Part shown: piece after piece, positions 159 to 39,468 of the stretch
Numbering within the stretch: position 1 is the stretch's first letter
Layout: the number at the start of each line of letters is the position of its first letter
NCBI GenBank assembly: GCA_964582295.1
Contig: CAZOQP010000002.1
Span: 148,268 to 209,369 of the forward strand
Direction of reading: 5' to 3'
Source: an uncultured Candidatus Saccharibacteria bacterium
GTDB taxonomy: Bacteria; Patescibacteriota; Minisyncoccia; Phycocordibacterales; Zambryskibacteraceae
DNA: 61,102 nt
Position numbers and translations under genes: made by a program
The notes under the pieces: generated by a model
The model's database searches: none
Seen by the model: only the letters and a program-made list of their open reading frames with translations
What the model was told of the DNA's origin: nothing

Positions 159-995
159 CTAGAAGACCACCGAAGTGTCGCTCTGTACTTCAAACTCTGC
201 ACTCGCCTCGCTCTCCGTCACAAGCTTATTTTTGAGTATGTTGTGCACGCGTGCCGATATCTCCGCTTGTTCACGTACCGAGAACACTCCCGTGGTGTTG
301 GCGGTCAGTATTTCATCTATATCGTTCCAGATAAGCTCTTCAAGTTCGGATGAAGTTGTGGTTTTTCCAGAGATCATGAAGCCGTACCATGGGAAATCCA
401 CGTCCACCTCCCCTTCAGCATCCACTGTAATGCCTACTGTGTAACTAACAGGTATGAGGGCTGCCAATCTTCCGCGTTCTTTGTATTTGGCTTCAACACT
501 TTCAGCAGTGAACCCCATTTCATCAAGCTTCTGGTCTTCCCGGATCATTCCGGTTACAAATGCCTTAAGATCAATTTCAGAAGAAACTTCGCTTGCCGCC
601 GCAGGCGTGCTTATTTCAACACCCGTGTTAGGTATCCCGACGATACCGCGTGAATCCGCTTCAGCACCCGCCTCGGCTTCAGCTTCCACTTGGGAGCGTG
701 TGACGATTAGATCCATTGCCCCGACAGCAGGAATGGAAACTGCGCTTCCTTGCCCGTTGCCAACACCCGAAATATTGCTTTCAGTGTCGCTTTCAGCCGA
801 CACCTCAGCCGAGGTGTCGGCATTCATATCTGTATCCAGATCGAGGTCCGTCGTCACATTCGTATCCACGTTAAGGTCCGCATCCAGATAATTCTGGGCC
901 AGGCCCACGTATTGAGTAAGAGAAGCCGCCGATGCGCCTATGCTAAAAGAAAGCGCAGCCGCAGGCAGCAATGATAGGAGAAGTATTTTTTTCAT
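159..995 (-). CDS. Secreted acidic low-complexity hypothetical protein
   Basis: 278 aa ORF with signal peptide (MKKILLLSLLPAAALS) and D/E/A/S/T-rich N-half. Confidence 0.8.
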   Translation of the reverse strand: MKKILLLSLLPAAALSFSIGASAASLTQYVGLAQNYLDADLNVDTNVTTDLDLDTDMNADTSAEVSAESDTESNISGVGNGQGSAVSIPAVGAMDLIVTRSQVEAEAEAGAEADSRGIVGIPNTGVEISTPAAASEVSSEIDLKAFVTGMIREDQKLDEMGFTAESVEAKYKERGRLAALIPVSYTVGITVDAEGEVDVDFPWYGFMISGKTTTSSELEELIWNDIDEILTANTTGVFSVREQAEISARVHNILKNKLVTESEASAEFEVQSDTSVVF

Positions 996-23877: not shown

Positions 23878-24858
23878 TTATACCGTAAAGTTTTTTACGG
23901 AGTACAGATCGCTGTCGTCTTGTTTTATTTCCTCGGAAGAACGATCGTCAACAGGTGCTTGGGGAAGTTCTTCCGCAAGGGCGATTTGCTTTTCCTCGGC
24001 TTTGTCTAACATTGCATTTTTGTGAGTTGCCTGCCCTTTTCGCAAAAGCTCCGCGATACCTTCCAGGTCGTCGTAATCAAAAAAATCAATAAGTATCTTG
24101 CCGCCTTTTTCACGTCTTTCAATATAAACGCGGGTACCCAAAGCTTCCTGAAGTTTCTCTTCCATATCCGCAAGAGCCGGGTCCTTCATAAGTTCTTTTT
24201 TGCGGGCACGCTCAAAAGCGATAGAGCGGGATATCCTCTCCGCTTCACGCACAGACATCTTCTTTATCATAATCTCGCGGAAGAGTGTCATCTGCTCCTC
24301 CGGCTTGTCTATAAGCATCATCAAAGGGCGTGTGTGGCCTTCGGATATCTTGCCTTCCGAAAGCGCATCCACTATTTCCACGGGTAGTGTGAGGATGCGC
24401 ATGGTATTCGTAACGTATTCGCGGCTCTTCCCTACTTTTTTTGCTATCTCGTTGTGCTTGAAGCCAAATTCTTTTGCCAGCCGATCAAAAGCGCGGGCGC
24501 GGTCAACAACATTCAGGTCCTGCCTTTGAATATTCTCAATAATGGCAAGCTCCAATTTCATGAGATCAGATTCCTCCCCCACCTTAATAAGAACGGGCAC
24601 CTGGAAAAGTCCGGCCAGGCGAGCGGCACGCAAACGCCTTTCGCCTGCGATGAGCTCGTATTCAACACTTAGTCCACCATCTTCTTTTTGTAGCTCTTTG
24701 CGTGTTACCACAAGCGCCTGCAATACGCCATATTGGCGTATTGAATCGGCAAGCGACCGAAGCTCATCTTCGGAAAATTCCCGGCGTGGCTGGAAGGGGT
24801 TGGGTTTTATTTTCTCAACCTCTATCCAAAAAATCTTATCTTCATAGAAACGCGACAT
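23878..24858 (-). CDS. parB: ParB/Spo0J family partition protein
   Basis: PNPFQPRREF, IAGERRLRAA, IENIQRQDLN, HTH; true start ATG 24858 because the longer ORF overlaps tRNA-Leu. Confidence 0.92.
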   Translation of the reverse strand: MSRFYEDKIFWIEVEKIKPNPFQPRREFSEDELRSLADSIRQYGVLQALVVTRKELQKEDGGLSVEYELIAGERRLRAARLAGLFQVPVLIKVGEESDLMKLELAIIENIQRQDLNVVDRARAFDRLAKEFGFKHNEIAKKVGKSREYVTNTMRILTLPVEIVDALSEGKISEGHTRPLMMLIDKPEEQMTLFREIMIKKMSVREAERISRSIAFERARKKELMKDPALADMEEKLQEALGTRVYIERREKGGKILIDFFDYDDLEGIAELLRKGQATHKNAMLDKAEEKQIALAEELPQAPVDDRSSEEIKQDDSDLYSVKNFTV

Positions 24859-24912
24859 GGGAATATTGTAACATTGCGAAAAGGAATGTATCGTGTTCAA
24901 CGTAGAGTTATT

Positions 24913-24998
24913 GCTGGGATGGCGGAATGGCAGACGCGATGGACTCAAAATCCATTGTCCGCAAGGATGTGAGGGTTCAAGTCCCTCTCCCAGCACCA
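24913..24998 (+). tRNA. tRNA-Leu(CAA)
   Basis: GCTGGGA/TCCCAGC, ATGGA-CTCAAAA-TCCAT, long variable arm, encoded CCA. Confidence 0.95.
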
Positions 24999-25093
24999 AA
25001 TAAACTTCTTTGTTTTGGGTGATTTTTAGGCCCAAACTAAGCCGTTTTTGGGAGGTACTTGACAAATACCTTTAATGGGTGTATAGTGGTAAT

Positions 25094-25666
25094 ATGGATA
25101 CAGTTTTGAGAAATGACTTCCAAATACACAAGGAGAATAGCACTCCGGCGTGGCATGTGAGCCTTCAGGCCTTTCTTGCGCTTTTTGTGCTTATTCTTCT
25201 TCCTCTTGTTTTCAGCGCTAAATCTTTTGTGGTAGCGCTCCTTTCCCCTTCTCCTGAAAAAGAAACACCGAAAGAGGAAGTGGCTTCTGCCAATCCTACA
25301 TTCGCACGTTTTCTTGCGACCGTCGTATTCGGTGTGGGTGAGGAAAATATCGTAATGAATGAGGAGACCGGCGAGGAACATATCATTCTTCCTTATGGCG
25401 GAAACGTGGACAGCGGAGGAAATATTTCTGCAGGCGGTGCCGTGCAAAGCGGCGGGTGGACAACCCAGCCCACGACCGACGGAAGTTTTGACACTATCAG
25501 AAGCGGCGGACGTGTGCGCGATACCGGAGGCAATATTCCAAGTGGTGGTGATATAAGCAACGGTGGCACTGCGAACGCGGGTGGCAATGTCCCTGCAGGA
25601 GGTGGTATTTCTTCAGGAGGAAGCATATCCGCTGGTGGTTCAATTCCTTCGGGAGGCAGCATCTAA
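25094..25666 (+). CDS. Membrane protein with Gly-rich hexapeptide repeats
   Basis: TM helix then (x)GG(x)I/V(x) repeats; TTGACA-N17-TATAGT-N6-ATG. Confidence 0.75.
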   Translation: MDTVLRNDFQIHKENSTPAWHVSLQAFLALFVLILLPLVFSAKSFVVALLSPSPEKETPKEEVASANPTFARFLATVVFGVGEENIVMNEETGEEHIILPYGGNVDSGGNISAGGAVQSGGWTTQPTTDGSFDTIRSGGRVRDTGGNIPSGGDISNGGTANAGGNVPAGGGISSGGSISAGGSIPSGGSI

Positions 25667-25687
25667 CTCAAGCTTCTATTTAAGAGC

Positions 25688-25727
25688 AACACAAAAATCC
25701 TCCGCAATAGCGGAGGATTTTTGTGTT
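25688..25727. terminator. Hairpin (CACAAAAAT family)
   Basis: AACACAAAAATCCTCCGC-AATA-GCGGAGGATTTTTGTGTT. Confidence 0.75.
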
Positions 25728-25740
25728 ATAACATTCCGGC

Positions 25741-26646
25741 ATGAAGAAAATTAAAGTTATTGCGATAGTCGGCCCGACGGCACTTGGCAAAAGCGAACTC
25801 GCCGTGTTTTTGGCGAGGAAATTGAATGGCGAAGTGGTCTCGGCCGATTCTCGTCAAGTGTACCAAGGCATGGACATAGGCACGGGAAAAATCACACCCA
25901 AAGATATGAAAGGTATTCCTCACCACATGCTTGATATCGCCAGCCCCAAGAGACGCATAACGGTAGTGAAGTATGCCGCGCTTGCGCGGCGCGCGATAGG
26001 AGATATCGCGCGCCGCGGCAACGTACCAATCGTTTGTGGCGGAAGTGGTTTTTATATTGAAGAATTACTTTTCCCCTCTTCTCTTCCCAATGTTCCGGCA
26101 GATAAAAAACTTCGGGCGAAACTTTCCAAAATGAGTACGGAAAAACTTTTCGCCAAGCTTATGAAAAAAGACCCGAGACGCGCTAAAACCCTGGACCCGA
26201 AAAATAAAGTGCGTATCATCAGGGCGCTTGAGATAACTGAAGCTCTTGGCCGGGTACCAAAACGAAAGAAGGGGCAGAGCCCTTACAAAGTGCTCACTAT
26301 AGGGCTTGATGCGCCTATAGAAACCATACGCTCAAAAGTGCAGAGACGTCTGCGGAAAAGGATGAATGCGGGGCTCGTAGCTGAAGGAAAGAAGCTTCAA
26401 AAGAAAAGTCTTACTTTTAAAGCAATGGAAAGTTTTGGCCTTGAATATAAATGGCTTTCCCTTTTCATACAAAAGAAAATTGATAGGAAGGAATTCATGG
26501 AAGGGCTTGAAAAAGATATCGTAGCTTATGCAAAACGGCAAAAAACATGGTTCCGTGCGAAAAAGAATATTTATTGGCTTGAGGCGGATAACAAAAAGAT
26601 ACGTACAAAATCACTCACCCTCGCCAAGCAATTCCTGGACAAATAA
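25741..26646 (+). CDS. miaA: tRNA dimethylallyltransferase
   Basis: GPTALGKS, SADSRQVYQGMDIGTGK, PHHMLD, YAKRQKTWF. Confidence 0.96.
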   Translation: MKKIKVIAIVGPTALGKSELAVFLARKLNGEVVSADSRQVYQGMDIGTGKITPKDMKGIPHHMLDIASPKRRITVVKYAALARRAIGDIARRGNVPIVCGGSGFYIEELLFPSSLPNVPADKKLRAKLSKMSTEKLFAKLMKKDPRRAKTLDPKNKVRIIRALEITEALGRVPKRKKGQSPYKVLTIGLDAPIETIRSKVQRRLRKRMNAGLVAEGKKLQKKSLTFKAMESFGLEYKWLSLFIQKKIDRKEFMEGLEKDIVAYAKRQKTWFRAKKNIYWLEADNKKIRTKSLTLAKQFLDK

Positions 26647-26694
26647 AAATTGTACAGGTAATCTCTGTGAGGAAACCACCTTCCGGAGGGAATA

Positions 26695-26847
26695 ATGAAG
26701 AGGCAATTAGTGCTCGGTGCAATACTCGTATTGGTAGGTATCGCACCAGACTTAATGAGCGTCCTTTTTTTCGGGGTTGTAACGGTTCTTTTTGCCGCAT
26801 TGCTGACGACCATGATGCGGTCAAGCTCAAGAAAGGACACTACCTGA
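26695..26847 (+). CDS. Small two-TM membrane protein (50 aa), not in the ORF track
   Basis: SD GGAGGG; MKRQLVLGAILVLVGIAPDLMSVLFFGVVTVLFAALLTTMMRSSSRKDTT*. Confidence 0.6.
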   Translation: MKRQLVLGAILVLVGIAPDLMSVLFFGVVTVLFAALLTTMMRSSSRKDTT

Positions 26848-26901
26848 AAGACGGGGGTAACACGTCACACTAGCGAATTTGCTGGGTGACGTGTTTTCAA
26901 T

Positions 26902-27080
26902 TGGCGGGCGGTGGAGGAATCGGCGACAGCTCACTAATTCGCCCTGTCCATTTTGGCGGGGCTCATAAGTGGCTCCTGCCCGGGCTCGTCCCGCGTAGCG
27001 GGACTCCGCCTTTCGATTCCTCACCATCCTCGCAACGATGAACCGCTCAAATAGCCCCCGGCTATTCTCGCGGGTCATTG
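26902..27080 (-). mobile_element. tRNA-Trp 3'-anchored mini-element (176-bp repeat spacing)
   Basis: 19-bp direct repeat of the tRNA 3' end (26904-26922 vs 27080-27098) plus an inverted T-arm copy at 27012-27025. Confidence 0.55.
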
Positions 27081-27151
27081 CGGGCGGTGGAGGAATCGAA
27101 CCCCCGACAGCGGATTTGGAGGCCGCAGTTATACCATTTAACTAACCGCCC
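27081..27151 (-). tRNA. tRNA-Trp(CCA)
   Basis: GGGCGGT/ACCGCCC, GCGG-C-CTCCAAA-T-CCGC, GGTTCGATTCC. Confidence 0.93.
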
Positions 27152-27174
27152 AGTAAACGCGATTATAACAAATT

Positions 27175-27338
27175 CCGCTCGCCGTGCCTTTCGGCGTACA
27201 CGCATAAATTTGCCCAGCGGCAAATTTTGCTGTCTCTCAGCTCGCCAAAGTAAAGAGCCCCTCGTGATTACACTCGGGGTCATTGACTTACCTAGCTTTC
27301 TCGCTTCCGAGACGTACGGCGAAAGGCACGGCTCGCTA
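27175..27338 (-). repeat. GAGCGA-flanked palindromic element 1
   Basis: Arms GCCGTGCCTTTCGGCGTAC / GTACGGCGAAAGGCACGGC (1 mismatch); flanks TAGCGA and GAGCGG on the minus strand. Confidence 0.65.
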
Positions 27339-27349
27339 CAAAATCCTTA

Positions 27350-27473
27350 GAGCGAGGGGTGATGACGAAAAGAGGCAGTGCAGCGCGAGGGTGCCGTTGC
27401 TGAATGGTTGCATTCAGACGGTGAGCAAGCAGCAGATTTTTATGCGTACTCTTTTCGTCATCACCCCGAGCGA
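27350..27473 (+). repeat. GAGCGA-flanked palindromic element 2
   Basis: GAGCGA-GGGGTGATGACGAAAAGAG...CTCTTTTCGTCATCACCCC-GAGCGA; close copy at 56550. Confidence 0.85.
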
Positions 27474-27659
27474 CTTTTATTTCTTGGCTTCCTTGAAAAT
27501 CACCCTCTTTCGGAGCTTTTTGGAGTATTTTTTAAGCTCTATTTTGCGCTCTACTTTGCGCTTATTCTTGCGGGTGTAATACACCTCGCCCGTTTCCTTA
27601 TTGCGGAGAATTATAAGTTGGTCTTGTGACATGATGAGGGAAAGATACCACAGCTCTGT

Positions 27660-28802
27660 TTAATTGCAAACCGTCCGCCGAAGGTGGGGGGCTATATGGA
27701 CCAGTATCTCATGGGAGATAGTTTCTGAGAGTTTCGCCATTGATTCCACGGAGTTCTTATTCTCTCGGCATCGGCTTATGATGATTACCGAATCGCTAAT
27801 TTTGGCATCCGGAACTTCGCTAACATCGATTGAGGAAATATTCATGCTCACCCTGCCAATAATGGGACACATGATGCCTTTCAAAGAGACAAATCCCCTG
27901 TCTGACAGTCTCCGGTCAATACCCTCAAAATATCCCGCGGGAATGGTAGCAACGGACGTCTGCTTTTCTGTTTTGTAAGTGCAGTTATATCCCACGTGCT
28001 CTCCGGGAAGGATTGTTTTGACGGACGTAATGAGCGAGCGCATTTCAAGAACAGGTTTGAGAGGCAGATCTCCTGAGTGCTTGGACGAAATACCGTAAAG
28101 ACCAAGCCCTAGACGTGCGACATTGGTGCTTTCAGGCGCAAAACGCACTCCGGCTGTTGCCGAAATATGAAAAAACCGGATGTCCTCAAATTCCTTTTTA
28201 AAACATCTCACGGATTCTTCCCACTTCACTAATTGTTTATTTGTAAATGTATCTTTTTCACCATCTGCATCAGCAAAGTGAGAACATAAACCTTCAAGTG
28301 TTAATAAAGTCTGTCCTTTTATAATCTTGATTGCTTCGTTTATATCATTTTCGGAAATACCCTGCCGATGCATACCAGTATCTATTTTTAAGTGAACCAC
28401 CTTCGGACTTCTGGCAGTTTCAGCAAGACTCTTTAATTGTTCAATGCTTGTGATTGTAAATGACACATTAGAGAGAGACGACGAATTGATGTTTTCGGGG
28501 CTTGCATACCCAACGATAAGAATTTTTGATTTTATATCCTCACCACGCAGAAGCATTGCTTCATAAAGCGAATCAACTACGAAAAAAGGTACGTTTTCCC
28601 CATCAAGTACACGGGCAACAGGCACAAGCCCATGGCCGTAAGCATTACTCTTTAGGACTGGAGCAAAAGATATTTTTGGGTATGAAGATATGTACGTACA
28701 TAAATTATGAATGAGACTGTTTTTTGAAATAAAAATTTCAATAGAAGGACTATAGGGCGACAGAGACTTTTTGACAGTCCTTAACCACGAGAGAAATTTC
28801 AT
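27660..28802 (-). CDS. alr: Alanine racemase
   Basis: VLKSNAYGHG PLP lysine, HLKIDTGMHRQG, HVGYNCTY, GRVSMN. Confidence 0.95.
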   Translation of the reverse strand: MKFLSWLRTVKKSLSPYSPSIEIFISKNSLIHNLCTYISSYPKISFAPVLKSNAYGHGLVPVARVLDGENVPFFVVDSLYEAMLLRGEDIKSKILIVGYASPENINSSSLSNVSFTITSIEQLKSLAETARSPKVVHLKIDTGMHRQGISENDINEAIKIIKGQTLLTLEGLCSHFADADGEKDTFTNKQLVKWEESVRCFKKEFEDIRFFHISATAGVRFAPESTNVARLGLGLYGISSKHSGDLPLKPVLEMRSLITSVKTILPGEHVGYNCTYKTEKQTSVATIPAGYFEGIDRRLSDRGFVSLKGIMCPIIGRVSMNISSIDVSEVPDAKISDSVIIISRCRENKNSVESMAKLSETISHEILVHIAPHLRRTVCN

Positions 28803-28917
28803 ATTCTATGATTATATCAAGCAGATGAATATTCACGTAAGCTGACCATGTCTTAGGCTTGAAGCCCAACAAATTTGACGTATGATGGCCCTCGGCAACC
28901 TTTAATCAAGAGGCTAT

Positions 28918-29172
28918 ATGAGCAATCGCTCTGTTGGCAAAATGTCAGGCAAGGTATGGTTCAGAAGAGAAATTGCTGACCTGAAACGACGCCAAAAAAT
29001 AGACCCTCAAGAGTTCCGTGCACGAGTTCTTGTGGTTTACCAAGCTCTCCAGACAATTGTAAGTCCGGGGATGAAAATTAATCTGTCTAAAGGAGGCGAC
29101 GAGGTTTTGGATACCAAGATCAGAACATTGGTTCAATCTGTGAGCCCAGTTGATACAAAAGATGGAAAGTGA
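28918..29172 (+). CDS. Hypothetical protein (84 aa)
   Basis: ORF with AGAGG upstream, followed by palindrome TTTAGAGCGCTCATATGAGCGCTCTAAA (29178-29205). Confidence 0.55.
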   Translation: MSNRSVGKMSGKVWFRREIADLKRRQKIDPQEFRARVLVVYQALQTIVSPGMKINLSKGGDEVLDTKIRTLVQSVSPVDTKDGK

Positions 29173-29274
29173 AATATTTTAGAGCGCTCATATGAGCGCT
29201 CTAAACTTTTTAATATTGTTTTCCTTATAACAAATGAGGCCCGCCATGTTCTTTGGCGGGCCTCTTAGACGGTA

Positions 29275-29838
29275 CTATCGAAACAACGTAGCAATTTTCT
29301 TCCGCAAGTTTCTTTGTTGTGCAAGCCTCCAGCGGCGAAGTTTTTTCCATTCTACTTCCAAAAACTTGGGCGGCTCAGGAAGCGGACCATAGCCTTCAAG
29401 TTGGTCCTGCTGCTTCACGAACTCGCACATGCAATTGGGAACCGTGCGACCGTATCTGTCGCACAGACAAGGTCCATACTTAAGTGGCAGAAGTCGGAGC
29501 TCTCCCCGTCTGATTTTTTCCCGCTCCTCGAGCATCCGTCGATGCGATTCGATTGCCTTACTCTCAGTACATGCACAGAAACTGAGTTCGCGACCACAGC
29601 GACAAAACCTCGGCAATGGCGAAAGAAGCCTTGGATAGAAATCCGCACCGCCACCATAGACCCCGCGGATCTGCTCCCATCTGCCACCATTGTCTTCGTC
29701 GTAAGAAAGACCGATCTGCTTATCCTTGCAATACCACGGATCATGCAGGACTTTCGTCCCATCTTCGTTCAAAAGCTCTCGCCCGCAATTTTGGCAATAG
29801 GTTTTCTGAAATCGTTCAGCGAAATCCTTTCTAGCCAT
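29275..29838 (-). CDS. Cys-rich hypothetical protein, putative Zn-binding
   Basis: SD AGGAGG; CQNC, CRCG..CAC, CLCD..CMC clusters; own promoter TTGACA-N18-TAAGGT. Confidence 0.65.
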   Translation of the reverse strand: MARKDFAERFQKTYCQNCGRELLNEDGTKVLHDPWYCKDKQIGLSYDEDNGGRWEQIRGVYGGGADFYPRLLSPLPRFCRCGRELSFCACTESKAIESHRRMLEEREKIRRGELRLLPLKYGPCLCDRYGRTVPNCMCEFVKQQDQLEGYGPLPEPPKFLEVEWKKLRRWRLAQQRNLRKKIATLFR

Positions 29839-29948
29839 GTAGCAACCTCCTTTTTATTGAATTGACTGTTCTGGGCGCACCTTATCACATATTTAAAAAA
29901 CATGTCAATCTCATGTTTACACTGAACGATCTTTAGCGAGTCGAAGTG

Positions 29949-30030
29949 TGCGTCGGGAGGGACTCGAACCCACGATGCCCGAAGGCCGGAGATTTACAGT
30001 CTCCTGGAATAGCCGCTATCCGACCGACGC
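29949..30030 (-). tRNA. tRNA-Tyr(GTA)
   Basis: GCGTCGG/CCGACGC, GGAGA-CTGTAAA-TCTCC, long variable arm. Confidence 0.93.
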
Positions 30031-30083
30031 AGTGCTTCATAATCTAGCAGATTATGGTGTGATTTACGAGAGAAAGGGATTGA

Positions 30084-32792
30084 TTACTTCTGCGCCGATT
30101 CTTTAGGTTTGTCCGCTTTCTTTTTTGTTTCGGTGTTCGTCCACAGGCTTCCGCGGCGGCCTTTTTTGATATCAAAAATAAATTCGTCGTTCTTCACGTT
30201 CACTACCACTTCCCCGCCACGTGACAATCCTTTGGATATCATAAGAGACGCAATCGGTGTCAATATCTTGTTCTGAATAACACGCTTCAAAGGGCGCGCA
30301 CCGTATTGAGGACTGTATCCTTCTTTGGCTAAAAGCTCGTAAGCCGGCTCTGAAATAATAAGGGTCAATTCCCTATCTACTAGGCGCTTCTTCACTTGCT
30401 CCACCTGAATATCCACAATACTGCGGATGGCATCCTTCGAAAGAACATCAAAGAGAATGATGTCATCCAAGCGGTTCAGGAATTCGGGGCGGAAAAATTC
30501 CTTGAGACTTACCATCACTTTTTCCTTTGCAGATTCGTAATCTCCCCCGCCATCTCCCAAGTTGAAACCTACACGCTCCATTTTGTCTATGTATTGAGCA
30601 CCAATGTTTGAAGTAAGGATGATAAGGGTGTTCTTGAAGTTAACGGTGCGGCCTTTAGCATCCGTCAGGCGGCCGTTATCAAGCACTTGAAGCAAAATGT
30701 TGAATACCTCCGGGTGAGCTTTTTCTATTTCGTCAAAAAGAATAACAGCATACGGTCTGTGGCGCACCATCTCGGTAAGCTGGCCTCCTTCCTCGTGCCC
30801 CACGTAGCCGGGCGGCGAACCGATAAGCTTTGAAACAGAATGTTTTTCCATGAATTCAGACATATCCACGCGGATGAGAGCTTTCTCGTCGTCAAACAAA
30901 AATTCAGCAAGAGCTTTGGTGAGCTCTGTTTTTCCTACACCCGTCGGCCCGAGGAAAATAAATGAGCCGACGGGGCGGTTCGGATCAGAAATGCCCGCGC
31001 GTGAGCGCTTCACTGTGTCGGCAATTTTTTTCACCGCTTCGTCCTGGCCCACCACGCGTGCTTTCAGGAATTCTTCCATGCGGGAGAGGCGCTCGGCTTC
31101 CTGTTCAAGCATGCGGGTAACAGGAATACCCGTCCAACGCGAAACGATGTCTGCAATATCTTCTGCAGTTATCTCCTCGCGAAGCATTCTGCGCGAGCTT
31201 TGCATGCGCTTCAGACGCTTTGATTTCTGCTCAAGCTCCCGCTCCAAAAACGGTATCTCGCCGTAACGGATTTCCGCTGCCCGTGCAAGGTCTGCCCTAG
31301 CTTCCGCACCTTCCGCTTCCAGGCGAAGCTTTTCCAGGTTTTTCTTTATATCTTTGAGCCCCTCAACGGTCTGCTTCTCCCCCTTCCACTTCATTTCAAT
31401 GTCACGGGTCTTTTCCTTCAATGCCTGCACCTCTTCTTCTATGGTTTTTATGCGTGCTTTGGTTTTCGCATCTTTTGTGGTCTCTATTTCTTTTTTGAGC
31501 GCCTGCCTTTCTATCTCCAAACGGCGCACTTTGGTTGCTGTTTCCTCAAGAATAGGCGGCATATTTTCAAGAGAAATTTTCAAATGCGAAGCGGCTTCGT
31601 CTATGAGGTCAACCGCTTTGTCTGGCAAAAACCTGTCGGTAATGTAGCGAGATGAAAGATTAACTGCCGCCACTATAGCTTCGTCGGTTATACGCACCCC
31701 GTGATAAAGCTCGTATTTTTCCTTGAGCCCGCGAAGAACGGCGACAGCATCTTCAACTGTCGGCTCATTCACATGAACGGGCTGGAAACGTCTTGTTAAG
31801 GCCGGGTCTTTCTCAATATGTTTCTGATATTCCTTAAGTGTCGTGGCGCCAATTGCCCGCAATTCCCCGCGCGCAAGAGGCGGCTTCAGCATGTTTGAAG
31901 CATCCATGGCGCCTTCAGCCGCACCTGCTCCGACGATAGTGTGTATCTCGTCTATGAAAAGAATTATCTTTCCTTCGGAGCGCTCTATTTCTTTTATTAT
32001 ATTTTTCAGACGCTCTTCAAATTCACCGCGATATTTGGTTCCGGCGATAAGGAGACCGAGGTCAAGCGAGACTAGCTCTTTGTCTTTAAGCGACTCCGGC
32101 ACATTTCCCGATGACATACGCTGGGCGAGGCCTTCAACAATGGCGGTCTTTCCCACTCCGGCTTCTCCTATGAGTATCGGGTTGTTCTTTGTACGACGGG
32201 AAAGTATTTGTACGATGCGGGCTATTTCATTGTCTCGTCCGATGACCGGATCAAGCTTATTTTCACGTGCAAGCTTCGTAAGCGAGCGTGTGTATTTCAA
32301 AATAGATTTTGGTTTTTTCGGATCTTTCTCCCGTCCGTCCTTAGTGGTTTTCAATTCCTCAATGGTGCGCACTACCAGAGCTCTGTCCAGTTTGAAGCGT
32401 GCCAAAAGATCGCGTGCAGAACTAGGCACTTCAAGAATGGAAATGAACAAATGCTCAACAGAAACAAATTCGTCACCCAAAGATTTCGCCGCCTTGAGGC
32501 CGTTGTCTATTGTCTGAGCGAGCTCGGGGGTGAGATATATCTGATAAGAGGAAGAGAGGACAGAGGAGCTGTCGGAGCCTTCAAGAGACTCAAGTATGGA
32601 ATCCGTGAGGAGGATACTATCAACATCCAGGCGGTCAAGAATGAGCCCTACAGTGGACTCCTCCTGCAGAGTGAGCGCCGCCAAAAGGTGGAGAGGATTG
32701 ACATGATTCTGCCCACGCTCAATAGCAAGCTCATGAGCTCTTTTCAGGGCTTCCTTGGCTTTAGTTGTGAATTGATGGAATGGAGGAGGCAT
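30084..32792 (-). CDS. clpB: ATP-dependent chaperone ClpB
   Basis: Two AAA+ modules ([16 protein letters not shown]), coiled-coil M domain with AEIRYG, GARPLKR. Confidence 0.93.
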
Positions 32793-34959: not shown

Positions 34960-35445
34960 ATGGCTATATTTACTCCTTATCTTCCGTATATTGCATTAGG
35001 CGCGCTCGCGCTCGGCTTTTTGTCGCTCATATTTAGCATACTTATATATGTGAGGGTGAGAAAATTTTTCAGTATCGGCAAGGGAAATTCGTTCGAGGGA
35101 GCAGTGAGAACGCTTTCATCCGATGTTTCGGAGCTCGGAACATTTCGCGGTGAATTGGAGACATACATTGAAAAACTTGAAAAGCGGCTCACCAGAAGCA
35201 CTCAGGCCATTCACTCCCGCAGATACAATCCTTTCAAGGGCGCTGGGGAGGGAGGGCTGCAATCGCACTCAACGGCACTTTTGTCTGAGAACGGCGATGG
35301 TGTGATGCTCTCCGCTCTTTCCACACGCGACCGCGTAAGCATTTTCGCCAAATCTATAAAAAATTTCGCCTGTGAAGATTTGGAACTAAGTCCGGAGGAA
35401 AAAGAGATAATCGCCGACGCTAAGAAAACAATTTCAACGATATGA
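34960..35445 (+). CDS. DUF4446-like membrane protein
   Basis: TM, RRYNPFK..GG.QS.S.ALL.E.GDGV, ELSPEEKE. Confidence 0.75.
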   Translation: MAIFTPYLPYIALGALALGFLSLIFSILIYVRVRKFFSIGKGNSFEGAVRTLSSDVSELGTFRGELETYIEKLEKRLTRSTQAIHSRRYNPFKGAGEGGLQSHSTALLSENGDGVMLSALSTRDRVSIFAKSIKNFACEDLELSPEEKEIIADAKKTISTI

Positions 35446-39150: not shown

Positions 39151-39231
39151 GGGCGGGTGGTGAAATGGTATACACGCTAGTTTTAGGAACTGGTCCCGCA
39201 AGGGGTGGAGGTTCAAGTCCTCTCCCGCCCA
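39151..39231 (+). tRNA. tRNA-Leu(TAG)
   Basis: GGGCGGG/CCCGCCC, CTAGT-TTTAGGA-ACTGG, long variable arm. Confidence 0.95.
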
Positions 39232-39391
39232 CAAATTTAACGAAGTGAAATTGTGCAGCGAGAAAGCAAACTGCTTTGCTTTCGTGAGAGGACTTGAAAA
39301 GGTTCTCCTAAATTTTTGAGTCTGCTATTGCGGATGAAAAAATAGGAAACCTGTACTGAAGCTGTAAGATTCAGGATCTCTCCCGCGCACA
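39232..39391 (+). mobile_element. tRNA-Leu 3'-anchored mini-element (158-bp repeat spacing)
   Basis: Inverted T-arm copy GAGAGGACTTGAA (39286-39298) and an 18/22 direct copy of the tRNA 3' end (39370-39391). Confidence 0.55.
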
Positions 39392-39468
39392 CTTGACTTT
39401 TATATGTATAGTATGATATAATAGTGGCAGAGCAGTACCTAACACACTACTCACACGAGGGTACTACA

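Follow-up and report, generated by a model that had tools for sequence, protein, structure and literature searches.

Why should an intact tRNA gene be followed, a short distance downstream, by a second copy of its own 3' end? The question is posed by the tRNA-Trp(CCA) locus of an uncultured Candidatus Saccharibacteria bacterium (genome G000, 568 kb, assembly GCA_964582295.1), which GTDB assigns to Patescibacteriota; Minisyncoccia; Phycocordibacterales; Zambryskibacteraceae. The window, that is the whole stretch of DNA that was analysed, has a length of 61,102 nt and corresponds to positions 148,268-209,369 of the forward strand of contig CAZOQP010000002.1. The gene is located on the minus strand, where ARAGORN places it at 27151..27080 and the Rfam tRNA model matches 27151..27081 with 59.4 bits. 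Its end reads ...TTCGATTCCTCCACCGCCC-G-CAATGA, which can also be written as ...GGGGGTTCGATTCCTCCACCGCCC-G-C followed by AATGA, with G73 at 27081 and C74 at 27080, and CCA is not encoded. An earlier note on this DNA had reported a 19-bp identical copy of the gene end, beginning in T-loop register 176 bp downstream, and this copy is indeed present. The 19-mer CGATTCCTCCACCGCCCGC, which spans C56 to C74, occurs exactly twice in the window, once within the working gene (27098-27080, minus strand, an exact match with 0 expected by chance) and once distally (26922-26904), at a start-to-start distance of 176 bp; there is no third copy in the window even when three mismatches are allowed, and none of 100 shuffles gave a match. 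As was also observed in the note, the gene ends in G-CAA and the distal copy in G-CCA, since the latter continues with CA (26905-26902) and thereby places CCA (26902..26904) directly behind the distal discriminator G73' at 26905.

The inserted unit as a whole (26904..27079, minus strand) is composed of a 157-nt element (27079-26923) and the 19-bp duplicate (26922-26904), and scores 118.9 bits (E = 8e-34) against a covariance model, R1, that was built from nine copies. Its boundaries were set by analogy with two pairs of occupied and empty sites in other genomes (G057/G056 and G058/G062, see below). The unit begins with a left module (27032..27079) in which the pairing AAUGA/UCGUU encloses the hairpin AAUAGCC-GGG-GGCUAUU; this module shares about 80% identity with its counterpart in the tRNA-Trp elements of two other genera, and one like it is also found at Ser and Val genes. 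It overlaps with an antisense arm, GCGAGGAUGGUGAGGAAUCGAA (27012..27033), which was recognised from the sequence and from folds and which complements T54-C74 of both the tRNA and the distal copy, with a bulge and mismatches. The stretch GGTGAGGAATCGAA at 27025-27012 is the complement of T54-C68 and leaves C65 unpaired, so that the description of 27012-27025 as the antisense of the T arm with one base missing was accurate, except that these 14 nt are part of a longer arm, 27033-27012. The arm is followed by helix P2 (26983..27010), which has a GGC/GCC base, an internal loop G-GA/GA and the hairpin GUCCCGC-UAC-GCGGGAC, and by helix P3 (26922..26980), which belongs to a core of type I, reads GGC AGG AGCCAC ... 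GUGAGCU GUC GCC, and has C56 of the distal copy as its final C. The distal copy itself (C56' to C74', 26904..26922) closes a long stem with the antisense arm; when the element is folded alone, the prediction pairs 17 of this copy's 18 bases 56-73 (median over the family 14.5/18). The two hairpins that the note had listed, AATAGCC/GGCTATT and GTCCCGC-TAC-GCGGGAC, are thus both part of this architecture, and its proposal that the trailer GCAATGA can pair with TCGTTGC also holds, with one G-U pair.

The element contains no conserved reading frame; a local frame of 83 codons, which begins in the trailer, stops after 11 codons in a relative (G009). A search with 4227 Rfam families at E <= 1 found nothing in 26900-27079, and over 24000-31000 it returned only tRNAs and chance matches. 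Known ribozyme and K-turn motifs were also looked for by eye; the tandem G-A loops are suggestive, yet the sequence departs from the hammerhead, HDV-like and box C/D consensus.

A 13-bp hairpin (26859..26895, minus strand), seen in the sequence and in the fold, separates the element from the convergent miaA gene (25741-26646, plus strand). The earlier note took it for a terminator at 26859-26897. The hairpin is real, but a consensus scan calls no terminator here and a U-tract is absent on the tRNA strand; it may instead end miaA, because TTTT follows it on the plus strand. With alr upstream and miaA convergent, gene order around tRNA-Trp in G000 differs from that of the relatives. The 500-bp gap between alr and tRNA-Trp also holds dispersed repeats (window 27226-27475). 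These include a 96-nt stretch (27226-27321) that is 96% identical to C2:147954-148049 of the same genome, and an approximately 130-bp unit whose inverted arms are 19 nt long (about 27346-27475) and which is present in roughly 10 copies in the 568-kb genome. G000 carries two Y1-transposase-like genes of about 220 aa, which might relate to the repeats of this gap.

The arrangement at tRNA-Trp is not confined to this genome. A 311-nt region was compared with 40 relatives. The same layout recurs behind tRNA-Trp in two other genera, represented by G009 (L002) and G008 (L004), where the repeat and the antisense arm each track the T arm of their own genome, and parts of the spacer are also matched behind tRNA-Ser, Val and Asp genes. 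R1 finds matches in 57 of the 86 genomes of the host family, with 0-11 copies per genome, and, under stricter filters, in 13 of 301 genomes sampled across the phylum, where it occurs patchily; the metagenome-assembled genomes of the relatives bear the labels Paceibacterota, Parcubacteria and 'Saccharibacteria'. Of the first 45 matches that were inspected, about 40 are located 35-200 nt 3' of a co-oriented tRNA gene (more than 12 specificities) or tmRNA gene, as are nearly all of the next 27. The tRNAs concerned are Trp, four Ser, two Val, Asp, two Glu, His, two Leu, Tyr, Gly, Gln, Lys and Met, in addition to tmRNA. Two pattern scans of viral contigs gave 131 candidate loci, of which only L160 is a true member, and no free or circular form was seen; L160, on a viral-labelled contig, is a tandem array that has no adjoining tRNA in the stretch examined.

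Within G000 itself, blastn finds no further copy of the tRNA-Trp spacer and R1 gives one true match and a weak T-arm match. A repeat scan of the genome adds three units whose cores differ, behind tRNA-Leu(UAG), tRNA-Ser(GCU) and tRNA-Ile(GAU). The first is a second element in the window (39151-39392, plus strand, with the tRNA at 39151-39232), of another core type and missed by R1; it consists of the antisense stretch GTGAGAGGACTTGAA, AAGGTT...AACCT and GTACTGAAGCTGTAAGATT, and its sense copy has decayed (GATCTCTCCCGCGCACA). The tRNA-Ser(GCU) unit (G000:C1:~35050-35339, minus strand) is about 200 nt long. Its antisense arm measures 17 nt, its core, GAACCGGGGAAGGGUCG..., is again a different one, and its sense copy of 15 bp reads G-CCT. 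At tRNA-Ile(GAU) (G000:C4:~330-485, minus strand) a 54-nt insert follows C74 and a 23-bp repeat, GGTTCGAGTCCTGGCACACGCAC, is present; this unit lacks an antisense arm, and its two copies end differently, the proximal one in A-CAG and the distal one in A-CCA, ahead of a terminator.

Across the family the order of parts is the same from 5' to 3', namely the tRNA, a variable trailer hairpin, the antisense arm (complementary to T54 through about 66-74), the core and the sense copy of C56 to C74. Each copy carries an antisense arm and a sense copy that are matched to its own tRNA and that form a long imperfect stem capped by a conserved three-way junction. In the commonest cores the junction includes a P2 with a 3-bp base and a G-GA/GA loop, and a P3 whose base is completed by C56 of the sense copy. 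Cores of type I, to which the tRNA-Trp copy in the window belongs, read GGGCAGGAGCCAC...GUGAGCUGNCGCC, and type II cores read GGGGUCG...loop CAGCAG...GUGACC; with at least two more types on the same arms, there are at least four core types in total. Crude extraction of cores with regular expressions gave no clear signal of clustering by genome or by tRNA type (means 0.63, 0.62 and 0.61). The middle pair of the P2 base covaries over 44 copies (CG 18, AU 14, GC 11, UA 1). In alignment A2, 95.8% of cells are paired versus 77% after shuffling and 26-51% when the partners are slid, a figure that is biased upward by the fitting of the alignment to the model. In 39 of 41 copies the sense strand gives a more stable fold than its complement (-44.7 versus -38.3 kcal/mol, p = 4e-8); the structure therefore belongs to the tRNA-sense strand, either as RNA or as single-stranded DNA.

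Sister genomes of genus g6 reveal how such a unit comes to lie behind a gene. At the tRNA-Val(GAC) locus the empty site of G056 reads ...GCGCA-C|TCGTATATAATAG..., and the occupied site of G057 reads ...GCGCA-C|103-nt element|CGAGTCCTCTACCGCGCAC|TCGTATATAATAGG..., so that G057 is equal to G056 plus 103 nt plus a 19-bp duplicate directly after C74; the 100-nt flanks of the two align from the first base (85/100). In the second pair, the empty site of G062 reads A-CCA-AATTTACCCCTTTACAAAC. The occupied G058 has a proximal copy A-C-TTGCAAAC, in which the left end of the element directly follows C74, and a distal copy A-CCA-TTCTTTTCACCCCTTTACAAAG, behind which sits the flank homologous to that of G062. 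At tRNA-Val(GAC), therefore, the element enters right after C74 and duplicates C56-C74; the gene stays whole, and the former downstream sequence, including CCA where this is encoded, comes to lie behind the distal copy. In set A3, which comprises 58 tRNA-plus-element units, C56 is the first base of the exact repeat in about 40, and the modal length of the repeat is 19-20 bp, with a range of 8 to 31 bp; such variation does not fit a fixed staggered cut. The insertion at a T-loop crossover that the earlier note had proposed is consequently borne out as an insertion in T-loop register that leaves the gene whole. The word crossover is less apt, because it implies an integrase and none is tied to the element.

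The same note had suggested that the original CCA end was displaced to the far side, and that empty tRNA-Trp sites in relatives should accordingly read GCCA. Displacement is what the G058/G062 pair at tRNA-Val(GAC) displays, but tRNA-Trp itself does not conform to the prediction, as six relatives without a model-detected element at this gene (G001, G002, G012, G016, G018 and G022, the first two from the same genus as G000) read G-CAA or G-TAA and never GCCA. The tRNA-Trp genes of G001 and G022 may be remnants of occupied sites, because both carry the element-like trailer CAATGA. Synteny around the gene is not conserved, which limits what the relatives can tell about the ancestral tRNA-Trp end of the G000 lineage. 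Over the family, CCA follows the discriminator in 12 of 52 distal copies versus 4 of 58 proximal genes (Fisher p = 0.028). Most distal copies read CAA, as the proximal ends do (CAA in 38 of the 58 element-bearing genes). In G000 CCA is encoded by 10 of 44 tRNA genes, which does not differ discernibly from the proportion among distal copies; C-A-A is the commonest sequence after the discriminator (13 genes), and most of the others begin with C. These family-wide frequencies agree with the displacement of a native CCA to the far side.

Several observations point to movement. The bodies of tRNA-Ser(CGA) of G004 and tRNA-Ser(GGA) of G001 are very dissimilar, yet the stretch of core and antisense behind them is 98.75% identical; three positions in the sense copies and one in the antisense arms set the two elements apart, and at each of these the element agrees with its local tRNA. 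Tandem units are found, for example in G099, G065 and L160. Elements also occur at the edges of small gene islands: in G009 (L019, G009:C3:20800-24400) tRNA-Asp is followed by an element, by genes for a 233-aa protein, YdjM and SET, and by a second element, and in G011 (L248, G011:C1:121200-124700) tRNA-Tyr is followed by an element, by PGDYG, SLATT/DUF4231 and ThsB-TIR genes, and by a second element. The two elements of each island are near-identical, and in the G011 island the duplication does not stop at the repeat but reaches more than 100 nt further, into the 3' end of an adjacent gene. Near-identical cores are hence present behind different tRNAs, in tandem arrays and at island edges. 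At L282-L300 in genus g6 the spacing and order of a tRNA cluster vary greatly among congeners, which suggests repeated insertions; the cluster comprises tRNA-Ser(CGA), Glu(UUC) and Val(GAC), and its Glu-Val gap ranges from 3 nt to more than 650 nt.

Taken together, the 176 bp behind tRNA-Trp are most readily understood as a type I member of a family of insertion elements that contain no gene, measure only about 100-200 nt and occupy tRNA and tmRNA genes of Patescibacteria at their 3' ends, a reading to which we would give a probability of roughly 0.6. The element would be non-autonomous and moved by machinery that it does not encode. In the route we prefer, a single strand of the element would fold, its two arms would rebuild a double-stranded replica of the target from the T loop to C74, and a host enzyme would then recombine the folded element with the tRNA gene; such a folded form would resemble an integron attC site or the attP of phage CTX. 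The Xer-like protein is the only tyrosine recombinase in these genomes, and its use in this step is a guess. An inserted element is situated after the tRNA but ahead of the hairpin or terminator that trails element-free tRNA genes, and should therefore belong to the primary tRNA transcript. There, the stem of antisense arm and distal copy could hide the spare tRNA 3' end and so let the upstream tRNA fold; by analogy with a proposal made for the tRNA-linked repeats of E. coli, it may also provide the trailer RNA with a tRNA-like 3' processing site. A more far-reaching version, which we put forward tentatively and consider rather unlikely as it stands, is that the family represents a mobile element of a new kind, which has no protein of its own and targets the universally conserved tRNA 3' end, with both arms rewritten from each target and the core as the sole heritable part. 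The arms would then be copied at insertion from the tRNA gene or from the tRNA itself, possibly by strand switching at the self-complementary T-loop sequence TTCGAA during repair or replication, or possibly through an RNA intermediate, two routes that we do not rank.

The strongest competitor, although an unlikely explanation for the family as a whole, is that the unit is an RNA module of the host, either a structured trailer RNA or a switch in tRNA maturation. The antisense arm would pair with the T arm of its own tRNA and block its folding, or with the decoy copy and free it, and the three-way-junction core would be a sensor or a protein-binding site; alternatively, the decoy 3' end would simply allow a small RNA to be processed at its 3' end as a tRNA is, as has been suggested for RrA, RrB and RrF. 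The constant co-orientation of the element with the tRNA and its location upstream of the terminator are in keeping with such a role, as are the covarying, strand-specific structure and the left module, which carries the pairing on into the proximal trailer. So are two nearly isoenergetic predicted folds. In the minimum-free-energy fold of the 257-nt transcript (-126.4 kcal/mol) the 5' strands of the acceptor and T stem of the tRNA pair with the distal copy, and in the cloverleaf-enforced fold (-120.3 kcal/mol) the element is closed by its own stem of antisense arm and distal copy. The refolding of the tRNA 5' strands onto the distal copy that the earlier note had envisaged is thus possible on thermodynamic grounds in these models, and the order of co-transcriptional folding would favour the cloverleaf-enforced structure. 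A mirrored copy 5' of a tRNA-Asn gene and the transcription and processing of RrA, RrB and RrF in E. coli, according to PMC8144298, can also be cited in favour of a host RNA. It is less easily reconciled with the sporadic occurrence of the element, a given tRNA being occupied in one genome and free in a congener, with a copy number of 0 to 11, with at least four unrelated-looking cores on one arm design, with the existence of decayed copies and with near-identical cores behind different tRNAs. Sporadic spread, copy number, multiple cores and decay are traits of mobile elements, and the two readings are not mutually exclusive.

The mirrored unit (L025, G021:C6, 690-912) has a 13-bp repeat of the 5' end of the tRNA-Asn gene, CATTCCGGAGTAG, a hairpin and a type II core. 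The orientation of the core is unchanged, and the antisense of positions 1-17 adjoins the intact gene.

It is very improbable that the tRNA-Trp unit is instead the scar of an integrase-borne island or prophage, that is, an attL and attR left behind after loss of the cargo and the integrase. A direct repeat of the tRNA 3' part that starts in the T loop, the targeting of tmRNA as well and the existence of cargo-bearing composites are all reminiscent of such islands. However, the sequence between the repeats is conserved, covarying and found hundreds of times, which is not expected of random remnants; it includes an antisense copy of the target that att arms do not need; and the G057/G056 pair indicates that the 103-nt unit was itself inserted. 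Nor does the enzyme content of the genomes fit, as there is no recombinase or integrase in or near the composite islands of G009 and G011, and these genomes typically have one Xer-like tyrosine recombinase only. A tyrosine recombinase is found in 78 of 86 family genomes, nearly always exactly one, Xer-like and of about 310-330 aa, and the count is about one per genome with or without elements; that of G000 is located at C1:113847-114353, away from the element. None of the domains PF00589, PF00078, PF01797 and PF00239 tracks element copy number, and G008, with 11 copies, has no reverse transcriptase, Y1 transposase or serine recombinase. No HUH enzyme tracks the element either, and no moving enzyme was identified among those tested, which counts against the mobile-element reading as well. 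G000 also encodes reverse transcriptases (two, about 344 aa) and large serine recombinases (three, 447-550 aa); the genes of these two groups are at C2:119109-119720, C1:61594-62205, C2:108987-109421, C1:165761-166204 and C2:122967-123401, and none is near the element.

An intron-like insert, in which the tRNA 5' strands pair with the CCA-bearing distal copy, the middle is excised and the ends are rejoined, would correspond exactly to the minimum-free-energy fold of the 257-nt transcript and to the CCA on some distal copies, yet it is hardly credible given that the gene is already complete without joining, that joining would bring no gain because most distal copies read CAA like the proximal ends, that no Rfam intron or ribozyme matches at E <= 1 and that bacteria are not known to splice T-loop inserts.

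Transfer RNA genes are classic landing sites for foreign DNA, and the known users bring their own integrase. Here a gene-less element of 100-200 nt appears to enter with single-base precision after C74, with a 19-bp duplication, across a phylum of bacteria with tiny genomes; it sometimes brackets small defence islands and is predicted to be present within every transcript of an occupied tRNA. If its movement relies on host enzymes or on its own fold, this would represent a new route for the spread of DNA in genomes where genes of mobile elements are few. In annotation, the element explains many calls of 'partial tRNA' and long tRNA trailers in Patescibacteria.

A keyword search of the literature found no published description of an element at the tRNA ends of Patescibacteria. 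Tyrosine integrases that target tRNA and tmRNA genes for islands and prophages include a class with its site in the T loop, and it is the 3' part of the gene that is targeted. The element shares with these islands the tRNA or tmRNA 3' target, the rebuilt gene and the partial 3' copy at the far end, and small gene islands can sit between its copies. It differs from them in that it has no integrase or other gene and is a unit of 100-200 nt, and in that it possesses a covarying structured core and an inverted copy of the target. The attC sites of integrons and attP of the CTX phage are imperfect inverted repeats that act as a folded single-stranded stem with unpaired bases, and clusters without an integrase exist. 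In a comparable manner the antisense arm and the distal copy of the element are predicted to form an imperfect stem with C65 unpaired and a variable centre, and its arrays are cassette-like as those of attC. Unlike attC, the stem replicates the end of a tRNA gene and differs from copy to copy. The core sites of attC are RYYYAAC and GTTRRRY; the T loop of the element, GTTCGAT, has C at the fourth position and does not conform to GTTRRRY. No IntI accompanies the elements, in contrast to integrons, and the single Xer-like recombinase of each genome is unlinked. MITEs are similarly short, gene-less and multi-copy, with inverted arms and a flanking duplication, whereas the arms of the element are specific to the target and directed to one defined tRNA position, and an autonomous partner was not found.

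By analogy of layout, the closest published system appears to be the tRNA-linked repeats (TLRs) of E. coli, on which Egan and Landy in 1978 and Rudd in 1999 are also said to have written. According to Stenum et al. (2021, PMC8144298), 22 TLR units are present at ten E. coli loci, with one to five units per locus, and are transcribed together with the operon; every unit closes with 18-19 bp that exactly repeat the 3' terminus of the preceding tRNA or rRNA gene. The same account describes RrA, RrB and RrF as transcribed, leaves most TLRs without a known function and considers the repeat as a proposed RNase E processing signal (PMC8144298). Like TLRs as described there, the element lies directly behind the gene in the same orientation, and its 3' end repeats the end of the gene (19 bp at tRNA-Trp, modal length 19-20 bp over 58 units), a likeness of layout. 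Unlike the TLR repeat, which extends to the encoded CCA end, that of the element runs from C56 to C74, and the element adds an antisense copy of the repeat segment and a conserved three-way-junction core. Occupied and empty pairs furthermore document the insertion event for the element, an event that the passages of PMC8144298 considered here do not mention for TLRs. If the movement reading is true, the Patescibacterial family might offer an explanation for the tRNA-linked repeats of E. coli, which have long gone unexplained.
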